This document shows, piece after piece, positions 5,930 to 64,000 of a DNA stretch of 64,000 bases (position 1 is its first letter; each line of letters starts with the position of its first letter). The notes beneath the pieces were generated by a model. The model saw only the letters and a list, made by a program, of their open reading frames with translations, was not told the origin of the DNA and searched no databases. Where the stretch lies: positions 1-64,000 of IMG/VR virus record IMGVR_UViG_3300005825_000057; one strand, given 5' to 3'. This DNA comes from a virus. The translations under genes were made by a program, and so were the position numbers.

Positions 5930-5931
5930 CT

Positions 5932-7358: not shown

Positions 7359-7579
7359 TATGGATCAATAACCTCAAATACAAAACTCAAATCTCCATCG
7401 TCACTTTCAAAAGTTTTAAGTTTCATATCAAAAAGAAGTTGAGTTTGTTCGTCGGTCAATAAAGCAAATAAATCGCCAAGAGTACCATCATCACTCCATA
7501 CGTCCATTGCCAAAGAATCTATTTCTTTGTGTAAGTCTTTTTTCATTTTAAGATTTAACCAAAAATTACCCGCTAACAT
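7358..7579 (-). CDS. hypothetical protein
   Basis: small ORF with a GGGG SD-like sequence, coupled to the next ORF. Confidence 0.5.
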   Translation of the reverse strand: MLAGNFWLNLKMKKDLHKEIDSLAMDVWSDDGTLGDLFALLTDEQTQLLFDMKLKTFESDDGDLSFVFEVIDP

Positions 7580-7595
7580 TATGCACCCCTAAAAA

Positions 7596-7636
7596 ACTGC
7601 CCTACCAGTCAAGCAATCCCCAACTGATAGGGCAGT
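7596..7636 (-). terminator. putative intrinsic terminator after prkA
   Basis: ACTGCCCTA...TAGGGCAGT inverted repeat followed by a T-run on the minus strand. Confidence 0.65.
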
Positions 7637-7654
7637 GGCGGCTTACATTTTTAA

Positions 7655-9730
7655 TTATTCATCTTCGGCTAAATCGCCACGAGCAAAGATGCCGCCAACA
7701 AAGTCAAGTACGTCTGTAGCGGAACGCTCATTATAACCGTACTGCTTAATCAATCTGGTCTTGATAGCATCAATCTTTTCTTGAATGTCTTTATCAACAA
7801 CAGTTGCACCACTCACATGGAGAGCAGACAACTTAATTGTGTCTTTAACATCCTCGAATAGTTTTGCTTCCAAAGCCTTCTTCAACTTGGCGTTGCTGTC
7901 CCACTTAAACTCTTTGCCCTTGTGGGAAAGATCGCCAATAAAGGCCGCAATTGAACGTCGGAAGTCGTCGGCCCCTTGATCTGGGATGTCGATTTTCGAT
8001 TCAATCTGACGCATCAATCTTTCGTCAGGCTTACGATCTTGACCTGTAATTTGGTCTTTGATCTTCGACTTATTGATATAAGCCATGATGTTGTCGATGT
8101 AATTTCCACACAATCTGATGATTGCGTCTTCATCTCCAACCAAAGCCTTCTGAACTTCAGATTTGAGAATATCTGTCAATTTCTTGACAGCTAAATCAAC
8201 ACACCCGATGTATCGGCCAACTTCGTCCTTGTTATTCAACAAGGAAGAACCTTCCAAGCCTTCACGGATTTCATTCAAGACCATGAACATATTGACATAT
8301 TCATGATTGTTGGCAAGACAGTTAGAAATCTTATCCTGTACATATCGCACAGAAATACCAGTTGTCATGCCTTCGTTGTCATATCGGTCACGAAGCTCTT
8401 TGACTTGTTCCTCAGTCCAACCGGGCAATAGTCTACCATCGTATAGTTCGGCCTTGGCAACCAAGTCAATCTTGCCATCTTTGTCGTCATTAAGACGAGT
8501 CAAAATGGCCCACAAAGCTGCGATTTCCAAAGTATGCGGAGCAACGTGTTGACGAACTCTTTCAGGACCATAATCCTTTTCGAGAATCTTCAATTCCTCA
8601 GACCACTTGAGGGTATAAGGCACGTCAACCTTTACAGTACGGTCACGCAACGCTTCCATATACTGGTTGGAACGCAACTTTTCATATTCTGGATTGTTGG
8701 TGTGAGCGAAGATAGCCTCATCAATTGAAACTTGGCTAAACTTCTTGGGTTTGATGTTTTGTTCTTGAGATGCACCCAACAGGTCATACAAGAATGCCTG
8801 ATCGAGTTTAAGAGCCTCGATGAACTCAATCATTCCACGATTACCAACACAGAATTCGCCGTCGAAATTAAAGCTGCGTGGGTCAGAGTCGGAACCGAAG
8901 TGACTAATACTTCTGAAGTTAATATCACCAGTCAATTCAGTCGAATCTTGGTTCTTTTCATCTTTTGGCTGGAAGGTTGCAATACCGCAACGATCTGCTT
9001 CAGAATAAACTTTGCGAACGACACGGATGTGATTTTCCAAAACTTTTTCAAGATCACCATCGTTTCTCTTGAGAAGTTCATTCATGAAAAACTTGCAGCG
9101 TGGATCAAGTTCCCCATCACATTTAAGATTATACAAATCAATCCGTCGATCTTCGTCAGTCAACTCTCGATGAATATTATTCAATTCAACTAAAAGTGGC
9201 TCACGAATTTCAGGTGGAAGCAACTTCAAGGGTTGCTCATGCATCGGGCAATCGTCTTCAGGATGTGTATAAATACCGTCTACACCCGTTGGAAGATTAA
9301 CCCAGCGGAAAGAATACCAAGCCCCTTCTTCTGTCTTAGAGTAATTCTCTAATTCTCTCTTAAATAATCGGCAGAGAGTTGATTTGGAGCTACCTACAGG
9401 ACCATGCAATAGTAAAATACGCTTCTCAGTACCATAACCCCCCGCAGCACCCCTGATGAATTTCATCAGAGCGTCCTTCGTAGGCGTCAACCCAATAATG
9501 GGATTATGGGGATTATCAAAAAACTTGTAATAGGTATAAGTCTTGCGATACTCTTCCACTTGATAGGTGCCCTTTTCAAGCACCATATCCCAAATCATTT
9601 GCCAAGCATTGCGAATTAGCTTGGGGTTTTTGCAGCACTCATCAACATATTGACCAAAACTCATTTCCGTGTGCAAAACACGGAATTTACTCCGGTCAAA
9701 ATTTCCGAGCAATTTATTCAATGCAGTCAT
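7655..9730 (-). CDS. prkA: PrkA/YeaG family AAA+ ATPase/Ser protein kinase
   Basis: KRILLLHGPVGSSKST Walker A, CPMHEQPL, PKDEKNQDSTELTG, NRGMIEFIE, EALRDR, HVAPHTLE; start set at the ATG with a GGAG SD. Confidence 0.95.
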   Translation of the reverse strand: MTALNKLLGNFDRSKFRVLHTEMSFGQYVDECCKNPKLIRNAWQMIWDMVLEKGTYQVEEYRKTYTYYKFFDNPHNPIIGLTPTKDALMKFIRGAAGGYGTEKRILLLHGPVGSSKSTLCRLFKRELENYSKTEEGAWYSFRWVNLPTGVDGIYTHPEDDCPMHEQPLKLLPPEIREPLLVELNNIHRELTDEDRRIDLYNLKCDGELDPRCKFFMNELLKRNDGDLEKVLENHIRVVRKVYSEADRCGIATFQPKDEKNQDSTELTGDINFRSISHFGSDSDPRSFNFDGEFCVGNRGMIEFIEALKLDQAFLYDLLGASQEQNIKPKKFSQVSIDEAIFAHTNNPEYEKLRSNQYMEALRDRTVKVDVPYTLKWSEELKILEKDYGPERVRQHVAPHTLEIAALWAILTRLNDDKDGKIDLVAKAELYDGRLLPGWTEEQVKELRDRYDNEGMTTGISVRYVQDKISNCLANNHEYVNMFMVLNEIREGLEGSSLLNNKDEVGRYIGCVDLAVKKLTDILKSEVQKALVGDEDAIIRLCGNYIDNIMAYINKSKIKDQITGQDRKPDERLMRQIESKIDIPDQGADDFRRSIAAFIGDLSHKGKEFKWDSNAKLKKALEAKLFEDVKDTIKLSALHVSGATVVDKDIQEKIDAIKTRLIKQYGYNERSATDVLDFVGGIFARGDLAEDE

Positions 9731-9837
9731 TGTATTTCTCCGATTCCGTTTTCGTTCGCAAAGAAGGGATTCCGAATATCCCACGCTAGAATAAATATAG
9801 CGTTAAAAAAAAGATATTCAAGTCTTGGAATAAGAAA

Positions 9838-22230: not shown

Positions 22231-23490
22231 ATGAAAGAGATTTCCTTCAAAATATTTATTGAAAACAGTTACGAAAGTATCCAAGCAGATATTCCACTGC
22301 CAAAGGCCGTATACACATTAAGTGATTTATTCACGCAAAATGGAGCTACGCTTTTCGCCGTAGGGGGCGCAATCCGTGATTATCTGTACCAACAACATCA
22401 TGATTCCCAAGGAAAATATTCTCCAAAGGACGTTGACTTGGCCACAGAAGCACCCCCAGATAAAGTCGTAGAAATTCTGAATTCTGATGCCGCAAAAAGA
22501 CATGGAATAAAAGTTTTTCCAAAAGGAGAAGCATTCGGTGTTATTTCTGCGATTCTCGATGGTGAAGAGTTTGAAATAGCCACATTCCGAGAAGAATGGT
22601 ATGACCCAGAGTCTGGGGATGGTCGTCGTCCAGATAAAGTGTCATATTCGACTCCTGCCAAGGATGCTCAAAGAAGAGACTTAACAATGAATGCGTTGTT
22701 CTATGACATTCACAGCAAAGAAATTCGTGATTACAACGTAAATCATCAAGGAAAAGGACAAGGACTAGAAGACATTAAAAATCTAGTAGCTCGTCCTGTG
22801 GGCAATGCTGCGGATAGATTCCGAGAAGATAAGTTGAGAATACCCAGACTTGTTCGATTTTTTAGTCGATTTAATCCGGGTGAAATTCGTCAACATTTAG
22901 ACCCTCAAACATTACAGGCTATTGAAGAATTTAAAGATTTAGTTGGCGTATCACCAGAAAGAATTGCCAATGAATTTAAATCTGGATTAGAAAAATCAAA
23001 AAATCCAGTTAATTACATTTTGAATTATCAAGCTGTAGGATTGATGCCAGCAGTATTTCCGAATTTACAGGTAGACTTGGAAGATGTTCCGCAAATTGGA
23101 CAAATCAAAAACATCAAGCCTGTTTTGGCGTGGCTCTTAAAAAGCAATCAATCTCCGCAACAAGTTAGAAGTAAATTGAATACTTTAAAATATCCAAATG
23201 ATGTATCTGACACAGTTGCATATCTCATTCAACTTTTGAAATTTGATCCCAAAAATATCATGAATTATTTGAGATATAGAGATGCACGGCCACATTTAGG
23301 AATTGAAAAAGATATTGCAGACCTTGCTAAAATAGCAAATCTTGAGGGAGAATTAGGACACTTTGCAAATTATAAGCAGCGAACAAATTCACAAGATTTC
23401 ATGCATTTAAAAGGCCCAGAAATTGGCAAAGCAATGTCATCGGCTGAAGCAGATGCTTACCAGAAATCTAAAATATATAAACCTGACTAG
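22231..23490 (+). CDS. cca: class II tRNA nucleotidyltransferase (CCA-adding/poly(A) polymerase family)
   Basis: VGGAIRD, DVDLAT, EIATFR, DGRRP, RRDLTMNA, RFREDKLRIPR, SPERI. Confidence 0.93.
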   Translation: MKEISFKIFIENSYESIQADIPLPKAVYTLSDLFTQNGATLFAVGGAIRDYLYQQHHDSQGKYSPKDVDLATEAPPDKVVEILNSDAAKRHGIKVFPKGEAFGVISAILDGEEFEIATFREEWYDPESGDGRRPDKVSYSTPAKDAQRRDLTMNALFYDIHSKEIRDYNVNHQGKGQGLEDIKNLVARPVGNAADRFREDKLRIPRLVRFFSRFNPGEIRQHLDPQTLQAIEEFKDLVGVSPERIANEFKSGLEKSKNPVNYILNYQAVGLMPAVFPNLQVDLEDVPQIGQIKNIKPVLAWLLKSNQSPQQVRSKLNTLKYPNDVSDTVAYLIQLLKFDPKNIMNYLRYRDARPHLGIEKDIADLAKIANLEGELGHFANYKQRTNSQDFMHLKGPEIGKAMSSAEADAYQKSKIYKPD

Positions 23491-26937: not shown

Positions 26938-27951
26938 TTAAACTGCGTCCAATTCCTTCATAAAGTCATCGTCAGCAAGCAATTCTTGCTCTTCAGATGG
27001 CTTAGAAGTTTCAGCCGTTTGAGTTACCAACTCAGAGCGTACTGAATCATCGCCCGCTGTAGCTGCTGGTGTTGAAGTTTCTTCACCAACGCCTGTTGCA
27101 TTGCGGAATTCGTCAAGATCATCATCTTTTTCGGATTCGCCTTCTTGAACCATTCCAAGGTGAACACGCAAAGCGTGTCTCAATTCTTCTTCGGTCTTGA
27201 CCTTACGAAGAGCTTGAAGATCGTGGATGTTTTCGAGCCATGTATCCAACTCATCGGATTCACCGGCAGGAGATTCACCCTCGAACTTGGAAAAGTCGTA
27301 GTTGGGGAATTCACGAGGACCACTCTTGGTGATCTTCTTGACAACCTTGAAATCACGGCCCGAAACAGGATTCGTGATGTCGCCCAAAGGAGTTTCGCCA
27401 GCGTCTTTATCGCCAACAATGGCTCGCATGATTTTGGCATGAACTTGTTTGCCACAAGAATAAATCTTGGGACCAACATTTTTTTGGACTTCACCAGTCT
27501 TCGGGTCTTTTTCTTGGCGAACGATTACGTTGTAGTAATATCGTTCTACAGGCTTAATATCTCTGGCTCTGTTCTGCTGAGCTTCTTGCTCTTTACCACT
27601 CATGGATTCAGACTTTTGCCATAGATCGCTGTAATACTTGCAGATAATGCAGTCGCCCTTCCACGATGGCACGAGCTTGCCATTTCTTTCAATCTGCACC
27701 AATTCTTTTGGACAGTGATATGCCCGTTTTTGTTTGGTGGTAGGATTTGTAAGAGTGTGAGTGCGAGTAGCACAAAACAACTTGGTGCCCTTTTTACGGG
27801 GCAAGAATCTCATCAACACGAAGCCTTCACGCTCAGGCATTCGCACAAATTTGGCAAGATATTCTTCGTTGTTATTTCCGGGTTCGGCGTTCACACGCTC
27901 GGACTCCATCATAACTTCGTTCATATCCAGCGCTTCATAGGCCGTACTCAT
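26938..27951 (-). CDS. T4 gp32-like single-stranded DNA-binding protein
   Basis: RFLP, CP...CIIC, RYYYNVIV, GRDF, NYDFSKF, acidic tail; adjacent to the recombinase. Confidence 0.88.
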   Translation of the reverse strand: MSTAYEALDMNEVMMESERVNAEPGNNNEEYLAKFVRMPEREGFVLMRFLPRKKGTKLFCATRTHTLTNPTTKQKRAYHCPKELVQIERNGKLVPSWKGDCIICKYYSDLWQKSESMSGKEQEAQQNRARDIKPVERYYYNVIVRQEKDPKTGEVQKNVGPKIYSCGKQVHAKIMRAIVGDKDAGETPLGDITNPVSGRDFKVVKKITKSGPREFPNYDFSKFEGESPAGESDELDTWLENIHDLQALRKVKTEEELRHALRVHLGMVQEGESEKDDDLDEFRNATGVGEETSTPAATAGDDSVRSELVTQTAETSKPSEEQELLADDDFMKELDAV

Positions 27952-46211: not shown

Positions 46212-47030
46212 TTAGTACGTCATCAAGATAATTTTTATGCACTCAACAATTTTTTTGATGTCTTGAGTTGGTGCGAACCATTCTTCAAAATCAGATGGTT
46301 GAATTGTCCATGTGTGTTGTCTCATTTTGGAGTCGATGTTATAACCCCAACATTTCATAAGTCCCTTATTTTTATCCCAAAATAAATCAATGTTAAATTG
46401 TTCAGCACGACTTGCGGTAGGAGCTTCAACTCCATGTCCTCGAAATTCATAAATGATTTTAAAATATCCTTCATCCATTTTCTTCATGCCAATAGGAAAC
46501 ATGCAATAGGCCGGATAATGTCTTTTGACTTCGTTGAAAAGTTTATAAGCCAAAGTGTCAAACTCTGGATATTCCATTTTGGGTGAATCATATTCATTTT
46601 TGTTTATTTCTATCAAACAATCATAAATTTCATGAGCCAAAGGGATTTCGTTTTTATTGTGTTCATTTTCACTAAAATCAACAACATCTTTGCAAATCCA
46701 TGTGGCTTCGCCTTGCAAATCTCTCGTCTTTCTACGAATGATCGTTTTATACGAACCAAGTGGACTGATATAAACTTGCAAAGCCCCAACATCATACCCC
46801 CATTCAAGTATGTTTGACATTTTGGCACGAGGCGAGAAATAACCCAATGCTGGCAATCTAATCAATTCATTCATAATCATTTCGGAATCCACTGGATCAA
46901 TTGGGTTTGCTCCTTCTGCTGGTACAGTACCACCCAAGCTGTCCGACTTCATATCGGCCAGTTTTTTCTCAAATCCAAAATCAGCCCACTCCTTGAGAGT
47001 TTGCCATCGTTTAAAACTTAATTTATTCAT
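46212..47030 (-). CDS. hypothetical protein with capsid-targeting-like N-terminus
   Basis: MNKLSFKRWQTLKE; TATATA upstream. Confidence 0.65.
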   Translation of the reverse strand: MNKLSFKRWQTLKEWADFGFEKKLADMKSDSLGGTVPAEGANPIDPVDSEMIMNELIRLPALGYFSPRAKMSNILEWGYDVGALQVYISPLGSYKTIIRRKTRDLQGEATWICKDVVDFSENEHNKNEIPLAHEIYDCLIEINKNEYDSPKMEYPEFDTLAYKLFNEVKRHYPAYCMFPIGMKKMDEGYFKIIYEFRGHGVEAPTASRAEQFNIDLFWDKNKGLMKCWGYNIDSKMRQHTWTIQPSDFEEWFAPTQDIKKIVECIKIILMTY

Positions 47031-47073
47031 GTTAACCTATATATCAGCAGAACCTACTTGTTTATGAGGACAT

Positions 47074-47205
47074 ATGAAAAACGAAGGAATTATAGCAATG
47101 ATTATTGGCATAATTATTGGGTTTGCAGCCGGTTATTACGTTGGTCATGAGCGAGCAATTCAAGATAATAATACTTTTAGATTTGAACTAAGGTCTGACA
47201 GATAA
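47074..47205 (+). CDS. small membrane protein
   Basis: GAGGA SD; 43 aa with one hydrophobic helix; below the ORF-track cutoff. Confidence 0.55.
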   Translation: MKNEGIIAMIIGIIIGFAAGYYVGHERAIQDNNTFRFELRSDR

Positions 47206-47486
47206 TGCAATTCCGCACATGGTTATTTGAGAACGAACAAAAAAACTTTGACTTTTACAAAGATGTCATGTTAAATTATCTAGGCTTGGACCCGACTAAA
47301 GGTCTATCTCAAAGCCTTGATACTTTTAATAAAGACAATTTGAAACAAAAGTTACAAGGTTTGGGGGAGTTTTCTGCATTGCCTGACCATGTGCAGGCCG
47401 ATATTCTGTCGAGGCTTGATAGCTCTCAGAGTGGTACAATGGGCGACATTATTAGATTGATGGCATCCAGAAGAGGAAATGTATGA
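47205..47486 (+). CDS. small protein with capsid-targeting-like N-terminus
   Basis: MQFRTWLFENE. Confidence 0.6.
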   Translation: MQFRTWLFENEQKNFDFYKDVMLNYLGLDPTKGLSQSLDTFNKDNLKQKLQGLGEFSALPDHVQADILSRLDSSQSGTMGDIIRLMASRRGNV

Positions 47487-48286
47487 AGTTCTTGATGTGC
47501 GATCCTAAGTTTTATGACATCCAATATGAAATCAATCCTTGGATGAAAATAGAAAATAAGCCATCAAATCATTTAGCCGTCGAACAATGGACAAAATTAG
47601 TAGAATTACTTAGAAAATTAGGTGCGACTGTAGAAATTATGGTCGGCAAAGCCAGCGTCCCAGATATTGTTTTTACTGCTAATGCGGCATTGATGGTTGG
47701 CGAAACAGCATATTTATCTAATTTTTCACATCCAGAAAGACGTGCTGAAACTCAACTTTATAAAGTTTGGTTTGAACAAAATTACTACCAAATAGTCGAA
47801 GTAAAAGATTTTTTTGAAGGGGCGGGAGACGCCCTTTTTGATTATAATAGACGATTATTTTGTGGTCACGGATTCAGATCGTCAGATGGAGCATTACTTA
47901 GAGATAACAACTTTCTTTCCCAAATTGGCGGTGTTCCTGTTCATTATTTGAAACTTGTTAATTCTTACTTCTATCATCTCGATACTTGTTTTTGCCCTCT
48001 GAAAGATGGATTTGCTTTGGCTTTTCCTCCTGCTTTTGATACAGAATCATATGAAATAATTCAATACCACATGGATGTCATTGAAGTTTGCGAAGAAGAC
48101 GCCAAGAAATTCGCTTGCAATGCTGTCTGTATGGGAAATCAAGTGGTCATTCCGAGTGGTTGTGATTCAACTTATAGACAGCTTGAAAGTGCAGGCTTTG
48201 AAGTGTATCATACGGATGTATCAGAATTTATCAAAGCAGGCGGTGCCTGTAAATGTCTTACTTTACGATTGGATGATTTTGCATGA
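47483..48286 (+). CDS. amidinotransferase/dimethylarginine dimethylaminohydrolase-family enzyme
   Basis: YEINPWM, PDIVFTAN, FEGAGD, FYHLDTCF, EFIKAGGACKCLT. Confidence 0.9.
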   Translation: MKFLMCDPKFYDIQYEINPWMKIENKPSNHLAVEQWTKLVELLRKLGATVEIMVGKASVPDIVFTANAALMVGETAYLSNFSHPERRAETQLYKVWFEQNYYQIVEVKDFFEGAGDALFDYNRRLFCGHGFRSSDGALLRDNNFLSQIGGVPVHYLKLVNSYFYHLDTCFCPLKDGFALAFPPAFDTESYEIIQYHMDVIEVCEEDAKKFACNAVCMGNQVVIPSGCDSTYRQLESAGFEVYHTDVSEFIKAGGACKCLTLRLDDFA

Positions 48287-48858
48287 CAGAGCGTATTCTT
48301 GTTCGACATGGACAAAGTGAACACAATATTGGACTCACCAGAAATTTGGATAGTAATCTTACGCCATTCGGTATCGAGCAAGCTACAAAAACTGGACTTT
48401 ATCTGCGAGACAACTTTTCAGATATAAAGGAATTTGTCGGTATAACTTCTCCATATCATCGTTGCTTGCAAACTTCAAATATTATCCACTCTTTGACTGG
48501 CATTTCTTTTCAAGTTAAGCCCGGCCCTAGAGAAATAATGATGAGTTACGACGAATGTAAAGTTGTTAATCGAAAAGATAAATTCAATCATTTTCATTGG
48601 CACCATGAAGAAGATTTTCATTTTATTCAGGAAGATGAAGGCGAATTTGTTTTCCGAATGCGTGAATATATTCACAGTGAAGATCATCCAAAATTATTGA
48701 TTGTTTCGCATGGATCGCCCATTAAAGCGATGTTTGATGCTCTGTTGGGTTCAGAAGTTTTGCCAAATTTACATGACTATCCAGATAATTGCAGCGTTAA
48801 TTATGTTAGAAATAAAGAGCCTGTTTGCTTCAATCTCAAGCCTTGGGATGCATCGTAA
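48283..48858 (+). CDS. histidine phosphatase family protein
   Basis: LVRHGQS, SPY.RC.QT, IVSHG. Confidence 0.9.
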   Translation: MTERILVRHGQSEHNIGLTRNLDSNLTPFGIEQATKTGLYLRDNFSDIKEFVGITSPYHRCLQTSNIIHSLTGISFQVKPGPREIMMSYDECKVVNRKDKFNHFHWHHEEDFHFIQEDEGEFVFRMREYIHSEDHPKLLIVSHGSPIKAMFDALLGSEVLPNLHDYPDNCSVNYVRNKEPVCFNLKPWDAS

Positions 48859-48864
48859 TCTTGC

Positions 48865-48893
48865 TTTACAACCATTCTTTTCTGTGGTAAGAT
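48865..48893 (+). promoter_or_regulatory. sigma70-type promoter, probably giving a leaderless mRNA
   Basis: TTTACA-17-TAAGAT with extended TG; ATG 7 nt downstream and no SD. Confidence 0.65.
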
Positions 48894-48900
48894 ATACCAC

Positions 48901-49614
48901 ATGAAACCTTTTACGTCCCAAAAACGAATTATTCCTGAATTTCCGAGGACTCGCCATCTTCCGTGGAAGCCGAATACGGTACGGGGTGATTTAGTCGTTT
49001 CCGAGGATGACGCCAAGGTAATTTTTGAAAATCCTTTTACCTACGTTCAAGAAAAGGTTGACGGGGCGAATTCTGGCATGGCCCTTGTGAATGATGAACC
49101 GATTGTCCGCAATCGGGAACACATTCTCCGCAAAGGCTTTATGAAGGATACCCCGGCCAAGAAACAATTCGCTTCAATCTGGGGCTGGTTTTACGACCAC
49201 AAAGAGAATTTTCAAAAACTCAATGATCTTCTCGGCCCGGTTTCCGTTTATGGCGAGTGGATGGTGCAAATTCATGGTATGGTTTATGAAAATTTGCCCG
49301 ATTGGTTCCTCGCCTACGACGTTTATGATTATGAAGTTGAGAAATTCCATGATCCCAAAGTTTCTATGGAAGCCTTGGTAGAATGTGGCTTTTCTGTCGT
49401 GCCTACTCTTAAATCCGGGCCTACTTCCTACGAAGAATTAGAGAAGTTTGCTAACGAACCTTCGGCTTTTGCTCCCACTCCAAGAGAAGGGGTTTATGTA
49501 AAAACCTCAGACGGACAATGGCAGACTGATCGCTTCAAGATGGTTCGCCAAGGCTTTGTTCAAGGTGGACTTTTTGATAATAAGGTACTTCGCAAAAATC
49601 GTTTGGCGAAGTGA
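48901..49614 (+). CDS. ATP-dependent RNA ligase family protein
   Basis: EKVDGAN (KxDG), YGEW, FLAYDV, EGVY, FKMV. Confidence 0.85.
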   Translation: MKPFTSQKRIIPEFPRTRHLPWKPNTVRGDLVVSEDDAKVIFENPFTYVQEKVDGANSGMALVNDEPIVRNREHILRKGFMKDTPAKKQFASIWGWFYDHKENFQKLNDLLGPVSVYGEWMVQIHGMVYENLPDWFLAYDVYDYEVEKFHDPKVSMEALVECGFSVVPTLKSGPTSYEELEKFANEPSAFAPTPREGVYVKTSDGQWQTDRFKMVRQGFVQGGLFDNKVLRKNRLAK

Positions 49615-49654
49615 TACTTGAATTCGACGTACCGTATTGTCATTGGAGGAAAAT

Positions 49655-49861
49655 ATGCTGTCGAAACTAATTGAAGCACTTCAAATTTTTCTGAAATATG
49701 GTGACGTGAGTTATCCAACTCATTGTGAGCATGACGTGCTTACAGTCTGTGTTGACCCAAGTGTAGTTTCAGAGGAAGATAAATCTGCTTTGAATTCACT
49801 TGGATTCATTGTTGATGAATCCGAGGATTGTTTTAAATCTTACCGATATGGTTCAGCTTGA
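49655..49861 (+). CDS. hypothetical protein
   Basis: GGAGG SD; PTHCEHD motif. Confidence 0.6.
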   Translation: MLSKLIEALQIFLKYGDVSYPTHCEHDVLTVCVDPSVVSEEDKSALNSLGFIVDESEDCFKSYRYGSA

Positions 49862-49872
49862 GGGAAAATTCC

Positions 49873-50211
49873 ATGCTTCGCAGCGGTCTTACTGTAATTG
49901 AATTGTTGATTATCTTAGTCATCATTCTGATTGTTGGTTCTCTTATTTTTGCAGGCGTCGGCGGCGGCGGTTTTCTGTCAGAGACTTTTGATGGCAAGGT
50001 TGTCGAAAAGTGGACTGATGTAGATTGGGAAGGTGGAAAGATTTATCGGGTTCAAGTAATGAAGCCCGATGGCGAAGTTGATACATGGGACTCATGGTGG
50101 GTTCACAATAAAGTACAAAAAGGCACTTGGTATAAATTCAAGACCCTTAGTGGTCAAATCAGTGGAGTTGAGAATACACCACAACGAGTCGAGGTTGAAA
50201 ATGGACATTAG
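49873..50211 (+). CDS. protein with type IV prepilin-like N-terminus
   Basis: MLRSG/LTVIELLIILVII with Glu at +5. Confidence 0.7.
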   Translation: MLRSGLTVIELLIILVIILIVGSLIFAGVGGGGFLSETFDGKVVEKWTDVDWEGGKIYRVQVMKPDGEVDTWDSWWVHNKVQKGTWYKFKTLSGQISGVENTPQRVEVENGH

Positions 50212-50752
50212 TTGGCTGAAAAGCCCGGAAAACAACAAAGTTTTGATTTTGATGCGGGGAGTTCCCGCAGCAGGAAAGAGCTATCGTGCCAAGGAATTGG
50301 CTGGCGATACTCCTGAAATCATCTTCTCGGCAGACCATTTCTTTGGTGCTACTTCTGAAGAGTATGTCAAGAATTGGTGTATCGAGCAACTTGGCAATGC
50401 TCATAAGCAGTGTCAAAAGAATACTCGTATGGTTATGCAGCGGCAGGGGCCGTTGGTAATCGTGGACAACACGAATACGCAAATTCGTGAAATGATGCCA
50501 TATTTCGATATGGCGGTTCAGTATGGGTATCGTTTGGATATTCATGAGCCGACTTCTCCGTGGTGGGTCGAGCAGATTGCTCCGTATCTAACCGACAAGG
50601 AAGGTAATCGTAAGCACTTGGAGAAGATGGCTGAACTTCTCTGGAAGAAGAATCAGGAAACTCACTGTGTTCCTTTGGAAAGCATTAAGAAAATGCTTTT
50701 CCGATTCCAGCCGAACGTCACGGTTGACGATCTTGCAAGGTGTTCAAAATGA
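50201..50752 (+). CDS. P-loop polynucleotide-kinase-like protein (AAA_33/N4BP2 type)
   Basis: LILMRGVPAAGKS, SADHFF, IVDNTN, H.VP. Confidence 0.85.
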   Translation: MDISWLKSPENNKVLILMRGVPAAGKSYRAKELAGDTPEIIFSADHFFGATSEEYVKNWCIEQLGNAHKQCQKNTRMVMQRQGPLVIVDNTNTQIREMMPYFDMAVQYGYRLDIHEPTSPWWVEQIAPYLTDKEGNRKHLEKMAELLWKKNQETHCVPLESIKKMLFRFQPNVTVDDLARCSK

Positions 50753-58947: not shown

Positions 58948-59035
58948 TTTACAACGCCGAAAATTGTGGTACAATAACGGCAGACGAGAAAAAAATTCTG
59001 AATCTCTTGAAAAAACGAATTAGTGACACTACTAT
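58948..59035 (+). promoter_or_regulatory. tandem sigma70-type promoters of the tRNA array
   Basis: TTTACA-16-TACAAT with extended TG (58948-58975) and TTGAAA-17-TACTAT (59007-59035). Confidence 0.65.
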
Positions 59036-59063: not shown

Positions 59064-59144
59064 GTGAACAAGTTCTCTTATCAGCTTAGCAGTTTATCAT
59101 CCTCGTTGCTATTTAGCAACGACAGGGGAGGCTGTGTCCGCTGA
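59064..59144 (+). CDS. putative attenuator leader peptide MNKFSYQLSSLSSSLLFSNDRGGCVR
   Basis: AAGGTG SD, GTG start, all six Ser codons, stop lies inside the antiterminator domain. Confidence 0.7.
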   Translation: MNKFSYQLSSLSSSLLFSNDRGGCVR

Positions 59145-59216
59145 GTAAGAGGACATAACGGGTTTAACCCCGGTAGCCCCCCAAGATGTTTGGGACTAGG
59201 CTACCGGGGTTTTTTT
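59125..59216 (+). terminator. attenuator: antiterminator/terminator switch
   Basis: 13-bp stem 59166-59178 with 59199-59211 plus T7; alternative pairing 59125-59134 with 59174-59182. Confidence 0.75.
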
Positions 59217-59227
59217 GTGGGATAATT

Positions 59228-59527
59228 ATGAGTTGGGCCACACATTACATCGAAAAACTTCGCAAGGGTGAAACGGTTAGTTTCAGGCCAAGGGGAGGTT
59301 CGATGAAAGGCAAAATTGAATCCGGGCAATTATGCACGGTGGAACCTGTAAAGGGTGAACTTGAAGTTGGTGATATAGTTTTATGTAAAGTTGGCGGAAG
59401 TCAATATTTACATTTGATTAAGGCAATCCAAGGTCAAAGGTATCAAATCGGAAATAACCGAGGCGGTATCAATGGGTGGATTGGGATGAATTCGATCTTT
59501 GGCAAATTGGTAGAAATCAATGAGTAA
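59228..59527 (+). CDS. small S24/S26 peptidase-like domain protein
   Basis: G.SM...I..G....V.P....VGDIV....H pattern. Confidence 0.6.
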   Translation: MSWATHYIEKLRKGETVSFRPRGGSMKGKIESGQLCTVEPVKGELEVGDIVLCKVGGSQYLHLIKAIQGQRYQIGNNRGGINGWIGMNSIFGKLVEINE

Positions 59528-59915
59528 TACGGACGAAAGTGCCAGTATGACTAGCGATTGGGCTGTGGGTGCATTCAAACCCAAGTCTATTCCAAGTCAA
59601 TCAGAGGAATTTTTAACTCAATTGGCCAAAGATATAGCGATGAACTTGGTCTTTACATCAGACCATGTTAATCGTGAACAGTGGGACAACCTTCTCGGTA
59701 TGATATTCATGCCGGTGGTTTTGGGAGCCTTTTCGGATTATACCGAGGAAGCCCGCAAAGACATTGGAATGATTTATGAATATTGGGATAAAGCTGGACC
59801 ACGATCAATCAACGGGTATCCAATTTTCTTTTCTTTCGCAATTGTGAATGTAAAAGACAGATTGTTTGTCTGGGAGAAAGTAGAAAAAATTCGGAAGGTT
59901 CTGGAAGCCGTATAA
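59520..59915 (+). CDS. hypothetical protein
   Basis: YEY..KAGPRSINGYP.F conserved-looking motif. Confidence 0.65.
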   Translation: MSNTDESASMTSDWAVGAFKPKSIPSQSEEFLTQLAKDIAMNLVFTSDHVNREQWDNLLGMIFMPVVLGAFSDYTEEARKDIGMIYEYWDKAGPRSINGYPIFFSFAIVNVKDRLFVWEKVEKIRKVLEAV

Positions 59916-59916
59916 C

Positions 59917-59999
59917 GGGAGTGCTAATGCTGTGGGAAGCTACGCTGGCTGTAACCCAGCCGCCTTAATGGATAAGGGGTTCGATTCCTCACACTCCCA
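59917..59999 (+). tRNA. tRNA-Tyr(GTA), atypical D-arm
   Basis: GGGAGTG/CACTCCC acceptor, GCTGG-CTGTAAC-CCAGC, GGTTCGATTCC. Confidence 0.8.
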
Positions 60000-60012
60000 C
60001 TTGAGAAAAGAA

Positions 60013-60231
60013 ATGAAAGCATACTTGCTGGATAAACGTGGAATAAGCAAAGTATATCTTGTCTTCGGAGAAGATTGTGTCTCTGCTGCCAAGGTACTAG
60101 CTGAAAAGCTAGGTTGTGATTACGAAGATTTTTCAGTAGGTGGTTCATGGGATGTTGACCCGAATGAGCCTATAAATTTAAGTCAACTATGGCCTTATTT
60201 TACAAATGCCCCCGGAAGGCATAGTACATAA
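60013..60231 (+). CDS. hypothetical protein within the tRNA array
   Basis: fills the space between two tRNAs. Confidence 0.5.
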   Translation: MKAYLLDKRGISKVYLVFGEDCVSAAKVLAEKLGCDYEDFSVGGSWDVDPNEPINLSQLWPYFTNAPGRHST

Positions 60232-60239
60232 GGAAAAAT

Positions 60240-60321
60240 GGCCTCGTGGTGGAATTGGCAGACACGCCAGACTCAAAATCTGGTGCCGCAAGGCGTGTGG
60301 GTTCGAGTCCCACCGAGGCCA
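60240..60321 (+). tRNA. tRNA-Leu(CAA), canonical
   Basis: full cloverleaf with variable arm. Confidence 0.95.
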
Positions 60322-60322
60322 C

Positions 60323-60413
60323 TGGTAGATGGTGGAAGTTAGACACGGCCCCGTGTAGGGGTTGGTAGGCCGATCACCTACCGTGCAGGTATCGAATCCT
60401 GCTCTACCAACCA
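60323..60413 (+). ncRNA. non-canonical tRNA-like RNA with encoded CCA
   Basis: TGGTAGA/TCTACCA-A-CCA, Leu-type D-arm, aberrant anticodon loop, 7-bp variable stem, 8-nt T-loop. Confidence 0.7.
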
Positions 60414-60415
60414 CG

Positions 60416-60488
60416 GGACAGGGAGCTAGTGTGGTCATAGCACTGGACTGAAAATCCAGCAAAATCAGTTCGATTCTGATCCTGTCCA
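60416..60488 (+). tRNA. tRNA-Phe(GAA)
   Basis: GGACAGG/CCTGTCC, CTGGA-CTGAAAA-TCCAG. Confidence 0.88.
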
Positions 60489-60505
60489 CTGTGAAAGGAA
60501 AATTT

Positions 60506-60670
60506 ATGGCTAGATCATTGTGTAAAGACCCAAGTATATCTCAAAAAAACGATGCGAGTTGCATCGGAAATAAACGGGGTATGGCTCGCAGAGCTAAGAG
60601 AAATAGCAACAAAAGGGATCGACAAAAACTAGACAAAGATTTGAAAGAAAGAATTGCACTTGTTCGGTAA
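60506..60670 (+). CDS. small Arg/Lys-rich protein (54 aa)
   Basis: AAGGA SD; MARSLCKD...RRAKRNSNKRDRQ; below the ORF-track cutoff. Confidence 0.55.
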   Translation: MARSLCKDPSISQKNDASCIGNKRGMARRAKRNSNKRDRQKLDKDLKERIALVR

Positions 60671-60704
60671 TCCGTTGCATATATACTTCTTAAAAGGAGT
60701 CTAT

Positions 60705-61112
60705 ATGTTTCAAGATACGAACAACACTTTGAATCAAGGCGGCGTTGGGTTAGCGAGGGCGATATATGAGTATCAAAGATTGGGGTACACAGTTTGTTTA
60801 CCTTTAGTTGATGCTCAAGATTACGACCTTGTAATTGAAAAGGATAAAAAGTGGGAGTCTGTTCAATGCAGAACAACTTCTACCAAAGCAAGAAGTAGAA
60901 AAGGCGGATTTATTGATGGTAGGTATGAAGTTAGTTTGAGGACCATAAAAACTAATACAAAAGAGACTACCATTAAAAAGAAAGGTAATTTTGATTTGCT
61001 TTTTGTGATGTGTGATAATGGCGATTGTTATTCGGTGCCGAATAAAGAATTGCCTGAATCTGGCACCACGGTCGGCGGTCCAAAATACGAAAAATACAAA
61101 ATTGGAAGCTAG
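60705..61112 (+). CDS. free-standing PD-(D/E)XK homing endonuclease (tRNA/group I intron-associated type)
   Basis: AAGGAG SD; G..G...A, GY.V..P, YDLVIE, VQCRT, FDLL. Confidence 0.8.
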   Translation: MFQDTNNTLNQGGVGLARAIYEYQRLGYTVCLPLVDAQDYDLVIEKDKKWESVQCRTTSTKARSRKGGFIDGRYEVSLRTIKTNTKETTIKKKGNFDLLFVMCDNGDCYSVPNKELPESGTTVGGPKYEKYKIGS

Positions 61113-61192
61113 GCAACTGCTGGTTTGTTGCACCGCTTTGCTAAAGCGGCCCGGTCTAAACCCCGGCGAGGGTTCGATTCCCTTGGCTTCCG
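61104..61192 (+). tRNA. tRNA-Ser(GCT), 8/4-compatible
   Basis: GGAAGCTA/TGGCTTCC-G, CCGCT-TTGCTAA-AGCGG, long variable arm. Confidence 0.88.
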
Positions 61193-61193
61193 C

Positions 61194-61274
61194 TTGCTCA
61201 AATGCCCGAAGGGATTACATTCTTGAAAAGTGTGTACCGAAAGGTAAACTATCTCTTTATTATTCGTTGAGCAA
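61194..61274 (+). ncRNA. structured ncRNA copy A (possible Y-RNA-like)
   Basis: 8-bp terminal stem; shares AAATGC, GGAnTACATT, CTCTT and ATTCGTT with 62259-62370. Confidence 0.55.
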
Positions 61275-61278
61275 ATAT

Positions 61279-61350
61279 GGATCAGTAGCTTAGATGGCAA
61301 AGCGTCTGTCTGAACAACAGAAGAGTGGAATTCGAGCGTCCATTGATCCA
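61279..61350 (+). tRNA. degenerate tRNA-Phe(GAA)-like
   Basis: acceptor, D and anticodon arms present; C37 and a distorted T-arm. Confidence 0.55.
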
Positions 61351-61355
61351 CTTAT

Positions 61356-61434
61356 GGCCTTGTACGCAAACTTATGGCAAAGCGGCTTCTTTCAAAAAGA
61401 AGTGATTTTGTGGGTTCGACTCCCACCAAGGCTA
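61356..61434 (+). tRNA. tRNA-Leu(CAA) lacking long variable arm
   Basis: CTTCT-TTCAAAA-AGAAG, variable region TGATTTT, G1-U72. Confidence 0.8.
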
Positions 61435-61523
61435 CTATGATGAAATTTTGTGGTGTATGTGGATTTCAATTACAAGGAAAAGGTGTTAAAAGATATAAGA
61501 CCTGTCCTGAATGCGAAGAAAAT

Positions 61524-61617
61524 GCCCGTGTACGCAAATTGGCACAGCGGACTACCTCAGAAGTAGTTGTCTCCCCTTCAACAAGGGATACTGTCGGTTC
61601 GAGTCCGACCACGGGTA
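61524..61617 (+). tRNA. tRNA-Leu(CAG) with extra-long variable arm
   Basis: ACTAC-CTCAGAA-GTAGT, about 25-nt variable region, G1-U72. Confidence 0.8.
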
Positions 61618-61620
61618 CTT

Positions 61621-61785
61621 ATGGGAAAGAAAAATAAAAGATATTGTATCCGGGCTAATCCGCCAAAAGGTTGGCAGATATGGGATCGGAAATTGGCAAG
61701 ATGGTGGGGAAATCCTACAAAGGAATTTCCTTATACAGTCTTGCAGAAATTGAATGAAGGAAAGCAGAGTGAATTGAAGTATTAA
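61621..61785 (+). CDS. small hypothetical protein
   Basis: fills the gap between tRNAs exactly. Confidence 0.45.
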   Translation: MGKKNKRYCIRANPPKGWQIWDRKLARWWGNPTKEFPYTVLQKLNEGKQSELKY

Positions 61786-61787
61786 AT

Positions 61788-61867
61788 GGCCGGGTACGCA
61801 AACCTAATGGCAAAGCGGCGAAGCTCAGAACTTCGTGATTTTATGGGTTCGACTCCCATCCCGGCTA
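61788..61867 (+). tRNA. tRNA-Leu(CAG) lacking long variable arm
   Basis: CGAAG-CTCAGAA-CTTCG, TGATTTT. Confidence 0.8.
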
Positions 61868-61868
61868 C

Positions 61869-61985
61869 TGTTTAATTTGGTGTAACGGTAGCATTCCCCC
61901 GGAAGGGGCAAGAACGGTTCGACTCCGTATATTAGTGTAACGGCAGCACAGAAATGAGGATCGGTTCGACTCCGAAAATTAAACA
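61869..61985 (+). ncRNA. double D-arm/T-arm tRNA-mimic RNA
   Basis: 10-bp closing stem around two GTGTAACGGYAGCAY...CGGTTCGACTCCG modules with no normal anticodon arm. Confidence 0.7.
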
Positions 61986-61991
61986 ATTTAT

Positions 61992-62067
61992 GGCCTTATA
62001 CGCAAAATGGCAAAGCGGCTTGTTTTAAAAATAAGTGATTTTGTGGGTTCGATTCCCACTGAGGCTA
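61992..62067 (+). tRNA. tRNA-Leu(TAA) lacking long variable arm
   Basis: CTTGT-TTTAAAA-ATAAG, TGATTTT. Confidence 0.78.
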
Positions 62068-62080
62068 CTATCCACCCAAT

Positions 62081-62162
62081 GGCCCCGTGGTGGAACCGGC
62101 AGACACGCTGGACTTAAAATCCGGTGCCTTCGGGCGTGAGGGTTCAAATCCCTCCGGGGCCA
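62081..62162 (+). tRNA. tRNA-Leu(TAA), canonical
   Basis: full cloverleaf with variable arm. Confidence 0.95.
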
Positions 62163-62168
62163 CTTTTT

Positions 62169-62256
62169 GGAAGCTAGGTCAGATGTTGGTTCGCTGCACC
62201 TGTCTTGAAAACAGGACCGGGTAAAACCGGCGAGGGTTCGATTCCCTTGGCTTCCG
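62169..62256 (+). tRNA. tRNA-Ser(TGA), 8/4-compatible
   Basis: CCTGT-CTTGAAA-ACAGG; same body as Ser(GCT). Confidence 0.88.
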
Positions 62257-62258
62257 CT

Positions 62259-62370
62259 TGCTACAAATGCAAATTAGGAGTACATTGACAAAAGTAAAGT
62301 CGTCGGGCAAAACCCGATATATGTGGGTATCGAATCCCACTGTAACCTCTTGGTTAAATTCGTTGTAGCA
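62259..62370 (+). ncRNA. structured ncRNA copy B with tRNA-like T-arm (possible Y-RNA/YrlA-like)
   Basis: TGCTACAA/TTGTAGCA stem; internal GTGGG-TATCGAAT-CCCAC arm. Confidence 0.6.
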
Positions 62371-62376
62371 TTTTTT

Positions 62377-62458
62377 GGAAGATAAGCGAATGGTTAGCGG
62401 TCACACTGGAAATGTGATGCCCCGCAAGGGGTTGCGGGTTCGAGTCCCGTGTCTTCCG
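62377..62458 (+). tRNA. tRNA-Ser(GGA), short D-arm
   Basis: TCACA-CTGGAAA-TGTGA, variable arm, G73. Confidence 0.85.
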
Positions 62459-62472
62459 CTGGGAGAAAATAA

Positions 62473-62700
62473 ATGGTCACTGTAAAAATTGTTGGTCCCG
62501 GTTTGGTTGTGAATAAACCGGCTGCGATAATTTACAAAGCATTGACTGAGGCTGGTTACAAAGTTGATCTTGAAGAATTTGCTGGACAACATCAGTATGT
62601 TCCAAAAGACGAATGGCCAGAGAAAGAATTAGTTGATACAGAACGCCAAAAGGGTATGGAAGTCAAAGTGGATGTTGATCCACTCCCTTGGGGCGGATAA
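62473..62700 (+). CDS. hypothetical protein within the tRNA array
   Basis: GGGAG SD; ends PWGG. Confidence 0.6.
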   Translation: MVTVKIVGPGLVVNKPAAIIYKALTEAGYKVDLEEFAGQHQYVPKDEWPEKELVDTERQKGMEVKVDVDPLPWGG

Positions 62701-62701
62701 T

Positions 62702-62790
62702 GGAGAGTAGGCAAATACTGGTTTGTTGCATCTGATTGGAAATCAGACCCGGTTTAAAACCCGGTGAGGGTTCGATTCCCTTGCTCTCCG
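62702..62790 (+). tRNA. tRNA-Ser(GGA), 8/4-compatible
   Basis: GGAGAGTA/TGCTCTCC-G, TCTGA-TTGGAAA-TCAGA. Confidence 0.88.
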
Positions 62791-62793
62791 CTC

Positions 62794-62906
62794 GCACAGA
62801 TGAAGGGCGTTCCCCTTAAATGAGAAATTGGCATCGAGGGCCAGTGAGCCGTAAGGCGAAGGGCCGGGGCTATGTGGGTTCGAGTCCCATCGCCTTTCAT
62901 CTGTGT
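62794..62906 (+). ncRNA. tRNA-like RNA with a 15-16-bp closing stem
   Basis: CACAGATGAAGGGCG/CGCCTTTCATCTGTG plus canonical T-arm GTGGGTTCGAGTCCCAT. Confidence 0.65.
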
Positions 62907-62926
62907 TTTTATAAGTAGGGAAGCTA

Positions 62927-63127
62927 ATGCACGCCAAAGTTTTTTATACTTTAGGGCAAAGAGATACGATTGCCGGTCTTTTTGCTATGATAAGATCAAA
63001 AGGAATAAATTCGACTTTGGCAGAACTTGCGGCTGAATATACTAAAGCATTTGATGAACCAAATCCCCATGTGGAATGGTGGATAAAACAAAATGAAAAG
63101 AAAGAAGATGTAGTTGAAAATGGATAG
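62927..63127 (+). CDS. hypothetical protein within the tRNA array
   Basis: AGGGA SD. Confidence 0.5.
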   Translation: MHAKVFYTLGQRDTIAGLFAMIRSKGINSTLAELAAEYTKAFDEPNPHVEWWIKQNEKKEDVVENG

Positions 63128-63204
63128 GTTGAGCAATTGGCTGGCTCGCCAGACTGTAAATCTGGTCCCTTCGGGGCATGTGGGTTCGAGTCCCACCCTA
63201 TCCA
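63122..63204 (+). tRNA. tRNA-Tyr(GTA)
   Basis: CCAGA-CTGTAAA-TCTGG, variable arm. Confidence 0.92.
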
Positions 63205-63213
63205 CTGGTTTTT

Positions 63214-63291
63214 GGCTGGGTACGCAAACTTCGGCAAAGCGGCCACTTCGAGAGAGTGGTGATTTTGTGGGTTCGACTCCCATCCCAGCTA
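63214..63291 (+). tRNA. tRNA-Leu(GAG) lacking long variable arm, C33
   Basis: CCACT-TCGAGAG-AGTGG, TGATTTT. Confidence 0.72.
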
Positions 63292-63293
63292 CT

Positions 63294-63521
63294 ATGCATA
63301 AGAATTATTACAACCACGATGAATCTGAGAAACATTATCGAAGACATATATCAAACCTTGCGTACCGATATAAATTTAAGGTAATTTACGAAGACGAAAG
63401 AATTTTGAAGAAAGAGAATGGCGAAACAACAGTAATTGTGGATATAACAGAAACACCCCGCAATACTTTATGTTGGAAGGCTTGGCTCAAACTTCAAAAT
63501 GAATACGAAAATGGATTCTGA
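63294..63521 (+). CDS. hypothetical protein
   Basis: starts immediately after the tRNA. Confidence 0.45.
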   Translation: MHKNYYNHDESEKHYRRHISNLAYRYKFKVIYEDERILKKENGETTVIVDITETPRNTLCWKAWLKLQNEYENGF

Positions 63522-63696
63522 AAAGATCGTGATTGATACACAAGAAAAACTTTTGGAACACTTTGGGAAACCAGAGAAAGATTTTTTTGGTATATCTGGT
63601 CTTTATATGGATTCATTAGAGAATGGACGAAGAATGCAATCGAGGATGGTGGATAACTATTTAAGATTGATATTTAAATTACAAAATGGAAGCTAG
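63511..63696 (+). CDS. hypothetical protein
   Basis: overlaps the previous stop and the next tRNA 5' end. Confidence 0.4.
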   Translation: MDSEKIVIDTQEKLLEHFGKPEKDFFGISGLYMDSLENGRRMQSRMVDNYLRLIFKLQNGS

Positions 63697-63774
63697 GCAG
63701 ATGTTGGCTTGCTGCACTTGTCTCGAAAACAAGACCGGGTAAAACCGGCGAGGGTTCAATTCCCTTGGCTTCCG
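63688..63774 (+). tRNA. tRNA-Ser(CGA), 8/4-compatible
   Basis: CTTGT-CTCGAAA-ACAAG; same body family. Confidence 0.88.
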
Positions 63775-64000
63775 CTGGGCACTAAAAGTGTCGTTCAAAA
63801 AAGTAAACTATTTCATGTAGAAATAAACTTGCTCCGACACAAAAACAAGAAAGGGCAATTAGAGGGTAGAAATTAAAGTGTAAAAATCCCCAACCCAAAA
63901 ATAAAAAAATCCATGCTATAATTTGTATTTTTCTCATACACTATTGTAGTATATAATGAAGAAAATGGGGTCGCACGGCGAATTAGTTTGGTAAGGCACA

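Follow-up and report, generated by a model that had tools for sequence, protein, structure and literature searches.

Why would a virus gather tRNA genes for only four amino acids into a single array? The question is raised by a 64,000-nucleotide stretch of viral DNA (positions 1 to 64,000 of IMG/VR record IMGVR_UViG_3300005825_000057; hereafter the window), which close to its end carries tRNA genes for leucine, serine, tyrosine, and phenylalanine only. Phage tRNAs are commonly treated singly, either as compensation for codon usage or as an antidote to one anticodon nuclease, and an earlier note on this DNA had proposed a diversified backup against a defense that targets class II tRNAs (i.e., those with a long variable arm) or tRNAs modified at A37. 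Comparison with related genomes points elsewhere: a clade of half-megabase phages sorts its tRNAs by class and keeps those for Leu, Ser, and Tyr (plus Phe or Cys) behind a leader open reading frame (ORF) and terminator of their own. We consider it reasonably probable that this unit is a demand-switched operon supplying class II tRNAs and tRNA-Phe, within the full translation-takeover kit of a phage of ~0.5 Mb.

Composition of the tRNA Array

tRNA genes in the window were called with ARAGORN, supplemented by Rfam and by alignment of paralogues. ARAGORN returned 15 calls at 59917–63775, all on the plus strand and including one non-decoder ('Thr-tgt'), and none in the rest of the window. Rfam supplied two further Leu genes with a short variable arm, CAA (45.5 bits) and CAG (22 bits), the latter under the Rfam cut-off yet a clear paralogue by alignment. 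Altogether, 16 cloverleaf tRNA genes are present, seven for Leu, five for Ser, and two each for Tyr (GTA) and Phe (GAA); the 15 tRNAs claimed earlier were thus right for Leu, Ser, and Tyr, and the total becomes 16 with a second tRNA-Phe. The Leu set comprises three long-arm (CAA, CAG, TAA) and four short-arm genes (CAA, CAG, TAA, GAG), and the Ser set covers GCT, TGA, GGA (twice), and CGA. The five anticodons that had been noticed on two different bodies (Leu CAA, CAG, and TAA, Ser GGA, Tyr GTA) are all confirmed, and Phe GAA joins them. As was also noticed, none of the 16 genes encodes CCA, since all end in the discriminator followed by C and T; the phage has a CCA-adding-family enzyme of its own (Table 1). 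The suspected continuation past the window amounts to one array gene, Leu-TAG, at contig 64049–64131. Besides these genes and an isolated Leu-TAA (contig 90731–90817), no further tRNA was found on the 101.5-kb contig.

A long variable region (>10 nt, stem-loop) is present in all five Ser, both Tyr, and the long-arm Leu CAA, CAG, and TAA genes, as well as in the Leu-TAG beyond the window. Because the variable loop is 7 nt long in four Leu genes and both Phe genes belong to class I, the array is defined by amino acid and not purely by shape. Chance cannot account for 16 of 16 genes drawn from four amino acids. With its tandem cloverleaf genes on one strand, the array is a phage tRNA gene cluster, the phage context following from the CheckV/IMG-VR status and from the huge-phage relatives described below. 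The ORFs lying between the tRNA genes are on the plus strand without exception, and five tRNA-like oddities accompany the array.

Class Partition in Related Phages

The contig is a linear viral record of 101.5 kb, 21 % complete by CheckV, and the named records nearest to it belong to uncultured huge phages (595 and 636 kb) from a study that counted up to 67 tRNAs per huge-phage genome (PMC7162821). A metagenome scan yielded short contigs only. Contig positions 35–81 kb are syntenic with 470–520 kb of G001, a relative of 532,729 bp rated 100 % complete (G and L numbers are our handles for related sequences). Complete relatives of 533 and 595 kb carry 59–60 tRNAs for nearly all amino acids, and relatives overall 45–60. 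The restricted repertoire of the earlier note is therefore an effect of the 21 %-complete contig, and a caution that tRNA repertoires are readily misread from partial viral contigs.

In G001 (59 tRNA matches), the minus strand at 473–499 kb carries Ser, Leu, Tyr, and Phe tRNAs only, plus a tRNA-like element. The plus strand at 0.1–36 kb holds 36 genes, none of them for Leu, Ser, Tyr, or Phe; their identities are Trp, Gly, Pro, Gln, Ile, Asp, Ala, Val, Arg, Met, Asn, Thr, and Glu, with one gene left unassigned by ARAGORN (Fisher p ~4e-12 for the partition). Where Rfam matches within this class I array are long, the genes are of class I and carry inserts, apart from one class II-shaped gene (anticodon TAT, see below), and none is Leu, Ser, or Tyr. 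LR756511 (60 tRNA matches) is divided likewise, with 12 Leu/Ser/Tyr genes at 427–437 kb and 44 class I genes, here including both Phe genes, at 233–278 kb (Fisher p ~2e-12). The close relative L004 has Leu, Ser, Tyr, and Phe only, L009 has Ser, Phe, and Leu, the 146-kb fragment G002 has eight Leu, one Tyr, and three Phe genes, and L110 has Tyr and Ser. LR756504 is looser, with one Cys in its Leu/Ser cluster and long tRNAs elsewhere too. Module membership is kept despite shuffled gene order, spans ranging from 4 kb (here) to 26 kb (G001), and swapped anticodons. Since relatives partition near-complete sets in this way, it is the module, and not the phage repertoire, that is restricted to four amino acids; the class II link seen by the earlier note is real and conserved, and class I tRNAs are to be expected elsewhere in this phage by inference from its relatives.

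The class I array of G001 has peculiarities of its own: within it lies a tRNA (27217–27314; L041 7217–7314) whose anticodon is TAT and whose variable arm is long, and several of its tRNAs bear inserts of 12–25 nt in the anticodon loop (L040 4872–4970 and 13184–13278).

Leader ORF and Terminator

Ahead of the array lies a leader ORF, VNKFSYQLSSLSSSLLFSNDRGGCVR, in which GTG AAC AAG is followed by 15 codons, 14 of them for Phe, Ser, Tyr, or Leu; of the 16 codons that specify these residues, 13 are used. Only 3 of the 2060 short ORFs of the contig reach this richness in the four residues. Equivalent leaders precede the cluster in L009, G001, G002, LR756511, and LR756504, and a terminator follows the leader in six of six lineages (strong in the five relatives), so that a short ORF rich in regulatory codons and adjoining a terminator, a mark of a leader-peptide attenuator, is found in all six. 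The leader sequences diverge among lineages and retain their composition, which roughly follows the content of the cluster: the LR756504 leader, for example, reads ILSLCLSLSLSL and stands before a Leu/Ser/Cys cluster. In L009, G001, and G002, and partly here, a GGCTGC in the 3' part of the leader is complementary to GCAGCC in the 5' arm of the terminator, a putative pairing of the kind expected of an antiterminator. The minimum-free-energy fold of the region in this contig consists of a leader hairpin plus the terminator.

Two scans of the class I arrays of G001 and LR756511 gave no convincing counterpart of the leader. A weak candidate, VIISHSVSELVVY, before a Val/Gly/Lys group in LR756511 was set aside.

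The arrangement resembles the attenuators of amino-acid operons (trp, leu, pheA/pheL, thr, ilv; for pheL see PMC3082878) in its ORF of regulatory codons before an intrinsic terminator and in the complementarity of GGCTGC to the terminator arm. It differs in its cargo, which consists of tRNA genes instead of biosynthetic enzymes, and in a leader that, in place of one repeated residue, draws on 13 codons for four amino acids.

Twin Body Types and tRNA-like RNAs

The four short-arm Leu genes form a family of 84 % column identity in which a 7-nt variable loop replaces the class II arm. The family occurs in at least six contigs, and its cloverleaf shows compensatory change at 19 of 23 pairs (11 sequences, 5 contigs). 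With a Leu anticodon, a short variable loop, and a cloverleaf under selection, these genes correspond in form to type I tRNA-Leu. The leucyl-tRNA synthetase (LeuRS) of Streptomyces coelicolor charges both type I and type II tRNA-Leu, and that of E. coli type II only (PMC6614811). As in the type I tRNA-Leu of S. coelicolor and mitochondria, a stemless Leu body stands here beside long-arm Leu, with A73 and U8 kept (PMC6614811); unlike there, the variable loop has 7 nt instead of 5 nt, and the genes are phage-encoded with four anticodons. No LeuRS was found in G000, G001, or LR756511.

Tyr body a is conserved with compensatory changes in L004, L005, and LR756511. Both Tyr bodies occur in this contig and in LR756511, again with compensatory changes, and their duplication therefore predates the split of the lineages. 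The twin body types are paralogues of old standing, conserved and presumably distinct in their properties. Orthologous slots change in detail: the anticodon of the 95-nt long-arm Leu is CAG in this contig and TAG in L004, a Ser slot with TGA here has CGA in L004, and position 37 of Phe b is C here and A in the L004 orthologue. Unusual anticodon loops are found in Leu-GAG (C33, seen again in L009), Tyr a (C38), and Phe b (C37), and position 8 departs from U in all five Ser genes (A8), Tyr a (C8), and Phe a (G8). Together, the short-arm Leu genes and the paired Tyr bodies are natural tests of the need for a long variable arm and may offer orthogonal tRNA scaffolds.

The element called 'Thr-tgt' (60323–60413) was rejected as a decoder, as its 5-nt loop is closed by CCCC/GGGG and lacks U33. 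The same applies to its homologue in G001, mislabeled 'Pyl-cta' by ARAGORN, with a loop of 5–6 nt closed by C/G runs and no U33. The element in the window has an 8-nt T loop (TATCGAAT) and is the sole array element with an encoded CCA; the G001 homologue, likewise directly after a Leu gene (L043 1736–1826, minus strand), has none. Its T arm reappears at 62326–62343. Further tRNA-like pieces are a tandem D-arm/T-arm element (61869–61985), a T-arm remnant with an 8-nt loop (62278–62349), and a 12-bp acceptor-like stem with a T arm (62800–62905). Finally, an 80-nt tRNA-like RNA runs from window position 63967 through 64000 to contig position 64046, with the alanine identity elements G3:U70 and A73; it matches the 3' end of tmRNA in Rfam (E 7.8e-5), is devoid of an mRNA-like part, and is preceded by a promoter-like TATAAT.

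A Proposed Supply Operon and Its Alternatives

These features suggest a unit read from a single strand in the order promoter, leader ORF, terminator, two small protein genes, and ~17 tRNA genes, among which small ORFs and tRNA-like RNAs are interspersed. A shortage of Leu-, Ser-, Tyr-, or Phe-tRNA would stall ribosomes in the leader, the stall would block formation of the terminator, and full isoacceptor sets for these amino acids would be transcribed; once supply is restored, transcription would end at the terminator. Maturation of the tRNAs would depend on CCA-adding enzymes, one of them phage-encoded. If such a switch operates, translation itself provides feedback control of tRNA supply, for which we found no precedent among tRNA genes, and no paper on their control by attenuation, in the literature searched. 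The supply operon is our preferred reading, because codon tuning and MiaA modification fit poorly and no class II-directed defense was found in the literature searched; a class-directed conflict is its main rival, followed by a by-product of gene duplication.

Several points weigh against a supply operon. It gives no reason why class II tRNAs should be set apart at all, and attenuation is read from sequence. Ser codons abound in the leader of G002, although the 146-kb fragment yielded no Ser tRNA; the leader of LR756511 has one Phe codon, and its Phe genes lie elsewhere; and no clear leader was seen in the L004 and L005 lineages. Class I tRNAs of this phage would have to lie beyond the contig, and contig positions 1–34 kb are not syntenic with the region of G001 that carries the class I array. 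Four estuary metatranscriptome libraries contain short contigs that match parts of the unit exactly, which places the phage in this habitat and is compatible with transcription; such contigs may derive from DNA, and stretches that they leave uncovered carry no meaning.

A reason for the separation would be at hand if class II tRNAs were a separately sensed resource because some agent in the infected cell, be it a host effector or a shut-off by the phage, removes them, with the leader reporting their loss and with resistant copies, including the arm-less Leu and the variant Tyr and Phe bodies, as the answer; we regard this as rather unlikely. In its counter-defense form, which likewise seems doubtful to us, an effector of the host or of a rival element would recognize the long variable arm and disable Leu, Ser, and Tyr tRNAs, and the phage would sense the loss and deploy resistant copies such as the arm-less Leu. 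Attenuator control that would report a shortage is seen clearly for the class II cluster only, and the putative RNA repair trio (see below) and the CCA enzyme are encoded no more than 40 kb away, with synteny kept in relatives. SerRS needs the long variable arm. Short-arm copies, conserved in at least six contigs, occur in Leu only, whose synthetase can dispense with the variable-arm stem (PMC6614811). Toxins directed at the variable arm are also known, as MenT3 requires the variable loop carried by tRNA-Ser (PMC11541572). However, no class II-specific bacterial immune nuclease was found in the literature searched, and for the one bacterial Schlafen characterized there, RorSlfn5, which cleaves the anticodon arm, no class II preference is reported (PMC13056530). 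Ser and Tyr retain their long arms, and long-arm Leu is kept alongside short-arm Leu. Relatives hold full sets with equal redundancy, and class II is thus not singled out as the attacked class: duplicated isodecoders, the lack of an encoded CCA, and non-U8 bodies (about one quarter of their class I tRNAs) are equally common in their class I arrays, so that none of these traits marks class II, and the redundancy can no longer be taken for a class II-specific backup. Were class-directed removal nevertheless real, it would mark the first known case in bacteria of a tRNA conflict directed at a class.

Single phage tRNAs are indeed known to counter nucleases: the tRNA-Tyr of T5 counters the retron PtuAB (PMC11555353), a phage tRNA-Lys counters PARIS (PMC11464382), and escape through the anticodon loop has been described (PMC10264068). 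Here too, phage copies could replace damaged host tRNAs, and some loops are unusual. In those cases, however, a single tRNA meets a known nuclease, whereas here whole isoacceptor sets stand within a full repertoire. The relatives cover nearly all amino acids instead of a small nuclease-matched set, and this analysis identified no nuclease, no defense system, and no host.

That the grouping is a functionless relic of local duplication followed by anticodon change appears improbable. It would agree with the evident paralogue families (four Ser genes of body a at 80 % column identity, four short-arm Leu genes), with the anticodon switches of orthologous slots between close relatives, and with the homing-type endonuclease gene within the array. 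Against it, the bodies of Leu, Ser, and Tyr belong to separate families, the clusters also contain class I tRNAs (Phe in our clade, Cys in LR756504), membership outlasts extensive reshuffling among lineages, and a composition-matched leader is conserved ahead of the cluster.

Tuning, in which the set would supply codons read poorly by the host (Leu, Ser, Tyr, and Phe account for 22.6 % of codons) or tRNAs dependent on i6A37 (MiaA, UNN readers), is very unlikely: both class I joiners, Phe and Cys, are UNN readers and most loops retain A36-A37-A38, but the sets are complete regardless of codon use, with two Leu-CAG genes for CTG, the rarest Leu codon at 3.5 per thousand, and readers of Leu-CUN and Ser-AGY lie inside the array, whereas the other arrays contain Trp in G001 and LR756511 and also Cys and Phe in LR756511 (no Cys was found in G001). 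The earlier note is accordingly supported in discarding codon tuning, and its MiaA link fits poorly.

The tRNA clusters of huge phages, T4, and T5 are similar in their tandem one-strand genes with interspersed small ORFs and homing-type nucleases (PMC7162821) and in genomes that also encode a CCA-adding enzyme and an RNA ligase. They differ from the present case, where a Leu/Ser/Tyr (plus Phe) unit is set at a distance from the class I genes or is divergent to them. In T4 and T5, the clusters mix classes, and we found no description of a class-split phage tRNA repertoire in the literature searched.

Features of the Locus and Neighboring Genes

Table 1. Coordinates of the tRNA unit and of associated genes in the window.
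Feature	Position	Strand	Evidence or remark
tRNA nucleotidyltransferase, CCA-adding family	22231–23490	+	PF01743, 4.7e-23; phrog_2244, 8.4e-39
Putative RNA repair trio (histidine phosphatase, RNA ligase, P-loop polynucleotide-kinase-like)	48283–50752	+	family-level matches
Promoter-like site TTTACA-16 nt-TG-TACAAT	58948–58975	+	10/12 consensus matches, extended -10; consensus match only
Leader ORF VNKFSYQLSSLSSSLLFSNDRGGCVR	59064–59144	+	read directly
Intrinsic terminator, 11-bp GC-rich stem then T7	59168–59216	+	hairpin -29 kcal/mol
Small ORF, weak Peptidase_S24-like similarity	59228–59527	+	E 7.5e-5, just under Pfam cut-off; kept in L009, G001
131-aa ORF heading array	59520–59915	+	AlphaFold2 pLDDT 87
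tRNA-Tyr(GTA) body a, C8, loop CUGUAAC	59917–60000	+	ARAGORN; below Rfam tRNA cut-off
tRNA-Leu(CAA), long-arm class II	60240–60322	+	ARAGORN + Rfam, 60.2 bits
Class II-shaped tRNA-like RNA (ARAGORN 'Thr-tgt')	60323–60413	+	not a decoder
tRNA-Phe(GAA) body a, G8	60416–60489	+	ARAGORN + Rfam, 56.9 bits
PD-(D/E)XK endonuclease gene within array	60705–61112	+	PF11645, E 8.3e-14
tRNA-Ser(GCT), Ser body a, A8	61104–61193	+	ARAGORN; 31.8 bits
tRNA-Phe(GAA) body b, C37	61279–61351	+	ARAGORN + Rfam, 45 bits
Short-variable-arm tRNA-Leu(CAA)	61356–61434	+	Rfam, 45.5 bits
tRNA-Leu(CAG), 95 nt, long arm, D arm of short family	61524–61618	+	ARAGORN + Rfam
Short-variable-arm tRNA-Leu(CAG)	61788–61867 (approx.)	+	Rfam, 22 bits, below cut-off; alignment
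Short-variable-arm tRNA-Leu(TAA)	61992–62068	+	ARAGORN + Rfam, 50.6 bits
tRNA-Leu(TAA), long-arm body	62081–62163	+	ARAGORN + Rfam, 58.2 bits
tRNA-Ser(TGA), Ser body a	62169–62257	+	ARAGORN
tRNA-Ser(GGA), Ser body b, 83 nt	62377–62459	+	ARAGORN + Rfam
tRNA-Ser(GGA), Ser body a, 90 nt	62702–62791	+	ARAGORN + Rfam
tRNA-Tyr(GTA) body b, U8, canonical loop CUGUAAA	63122–63205	+	ARAGORN + Rfam, 55.9 bits
Short-variable-arm tRNA-Leu(GAG), C33	63214–63292	+	ARAGORN
tRNA-Ser(CGA), Ser body a	63688–63775	+	ARAGORN

Between the putative attenuator and the tRNA genes sits the small Peptidase_S24-like ORF, followed by the 131-aa ORF that heads the array. Wherever relatives of the latter share at least 52 % identity, tRNA genes of the class II set follow, with Tyr directly after the ORF in four lineages and class II-set tRNAs ~0.7 kb further on in others. 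Downstream of homologues below 50 % identity, tRNAs are mostly absent and those of the class II set always so; the gene is therefore not a general marker of the module. The protein belongs to no Pfam or PHROG family, its model (pLDDT 87) found no fold match in the PDB by Foldseek or VIA-align (best Z 4.0), and its matches in the Atlas are unnamed clusters only. The PD-(D/E)XK gene within the array is probably a mobile homing-type nuclease.

Three adjacent genes, located ~9 kb upstream of the operon and with synteny conserved in G001, L009, and G002, match His_Phos_1, PF09414 (RNA ligase), and AAA_33/phrog_505 (P-loop kinase) at the family level only. They look like an RNA heal-and-seal cassette, a putative assignment from these matches; neither the kinase nor the ligase had a sequence match in the PDB, and a search for RtcB found none. 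The phosphatase of T4 Pnkp is of the HAD type, from which the His_Phos_1 protein of the trio differs.

The window also encodes bacterial-type replication proteins. Recoding of stop codons was considered and rejected, as the standard code leaves 89 % of the contig in open frames of at least 100 aa. On the minus strand at 4331–9784, the window contains a triad of PrkA kinase, DUF444 (YeaH-like), and SpoVR, a bacterial stress-response set in a phage contig. Past the last tRNA, an ORF at contig 64150–64530 has CPC and CHC motifs and, judged by eye, resembles the ferredoxin-thioredoxin reductase catalytic subunit. SerRS binds the long variable arm of its tRNA through an N-terminal coiled-coil arm. 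G001 encodes, as its only SerRS, a core that lacks the coiled-coil arm (46687–47421), and in LR756504.1, 1.4 kb upstream of the Leu/Ser/Cys cluster, a free-standing 121-aa ORF (587038–587388) matches only the SerRS arm.

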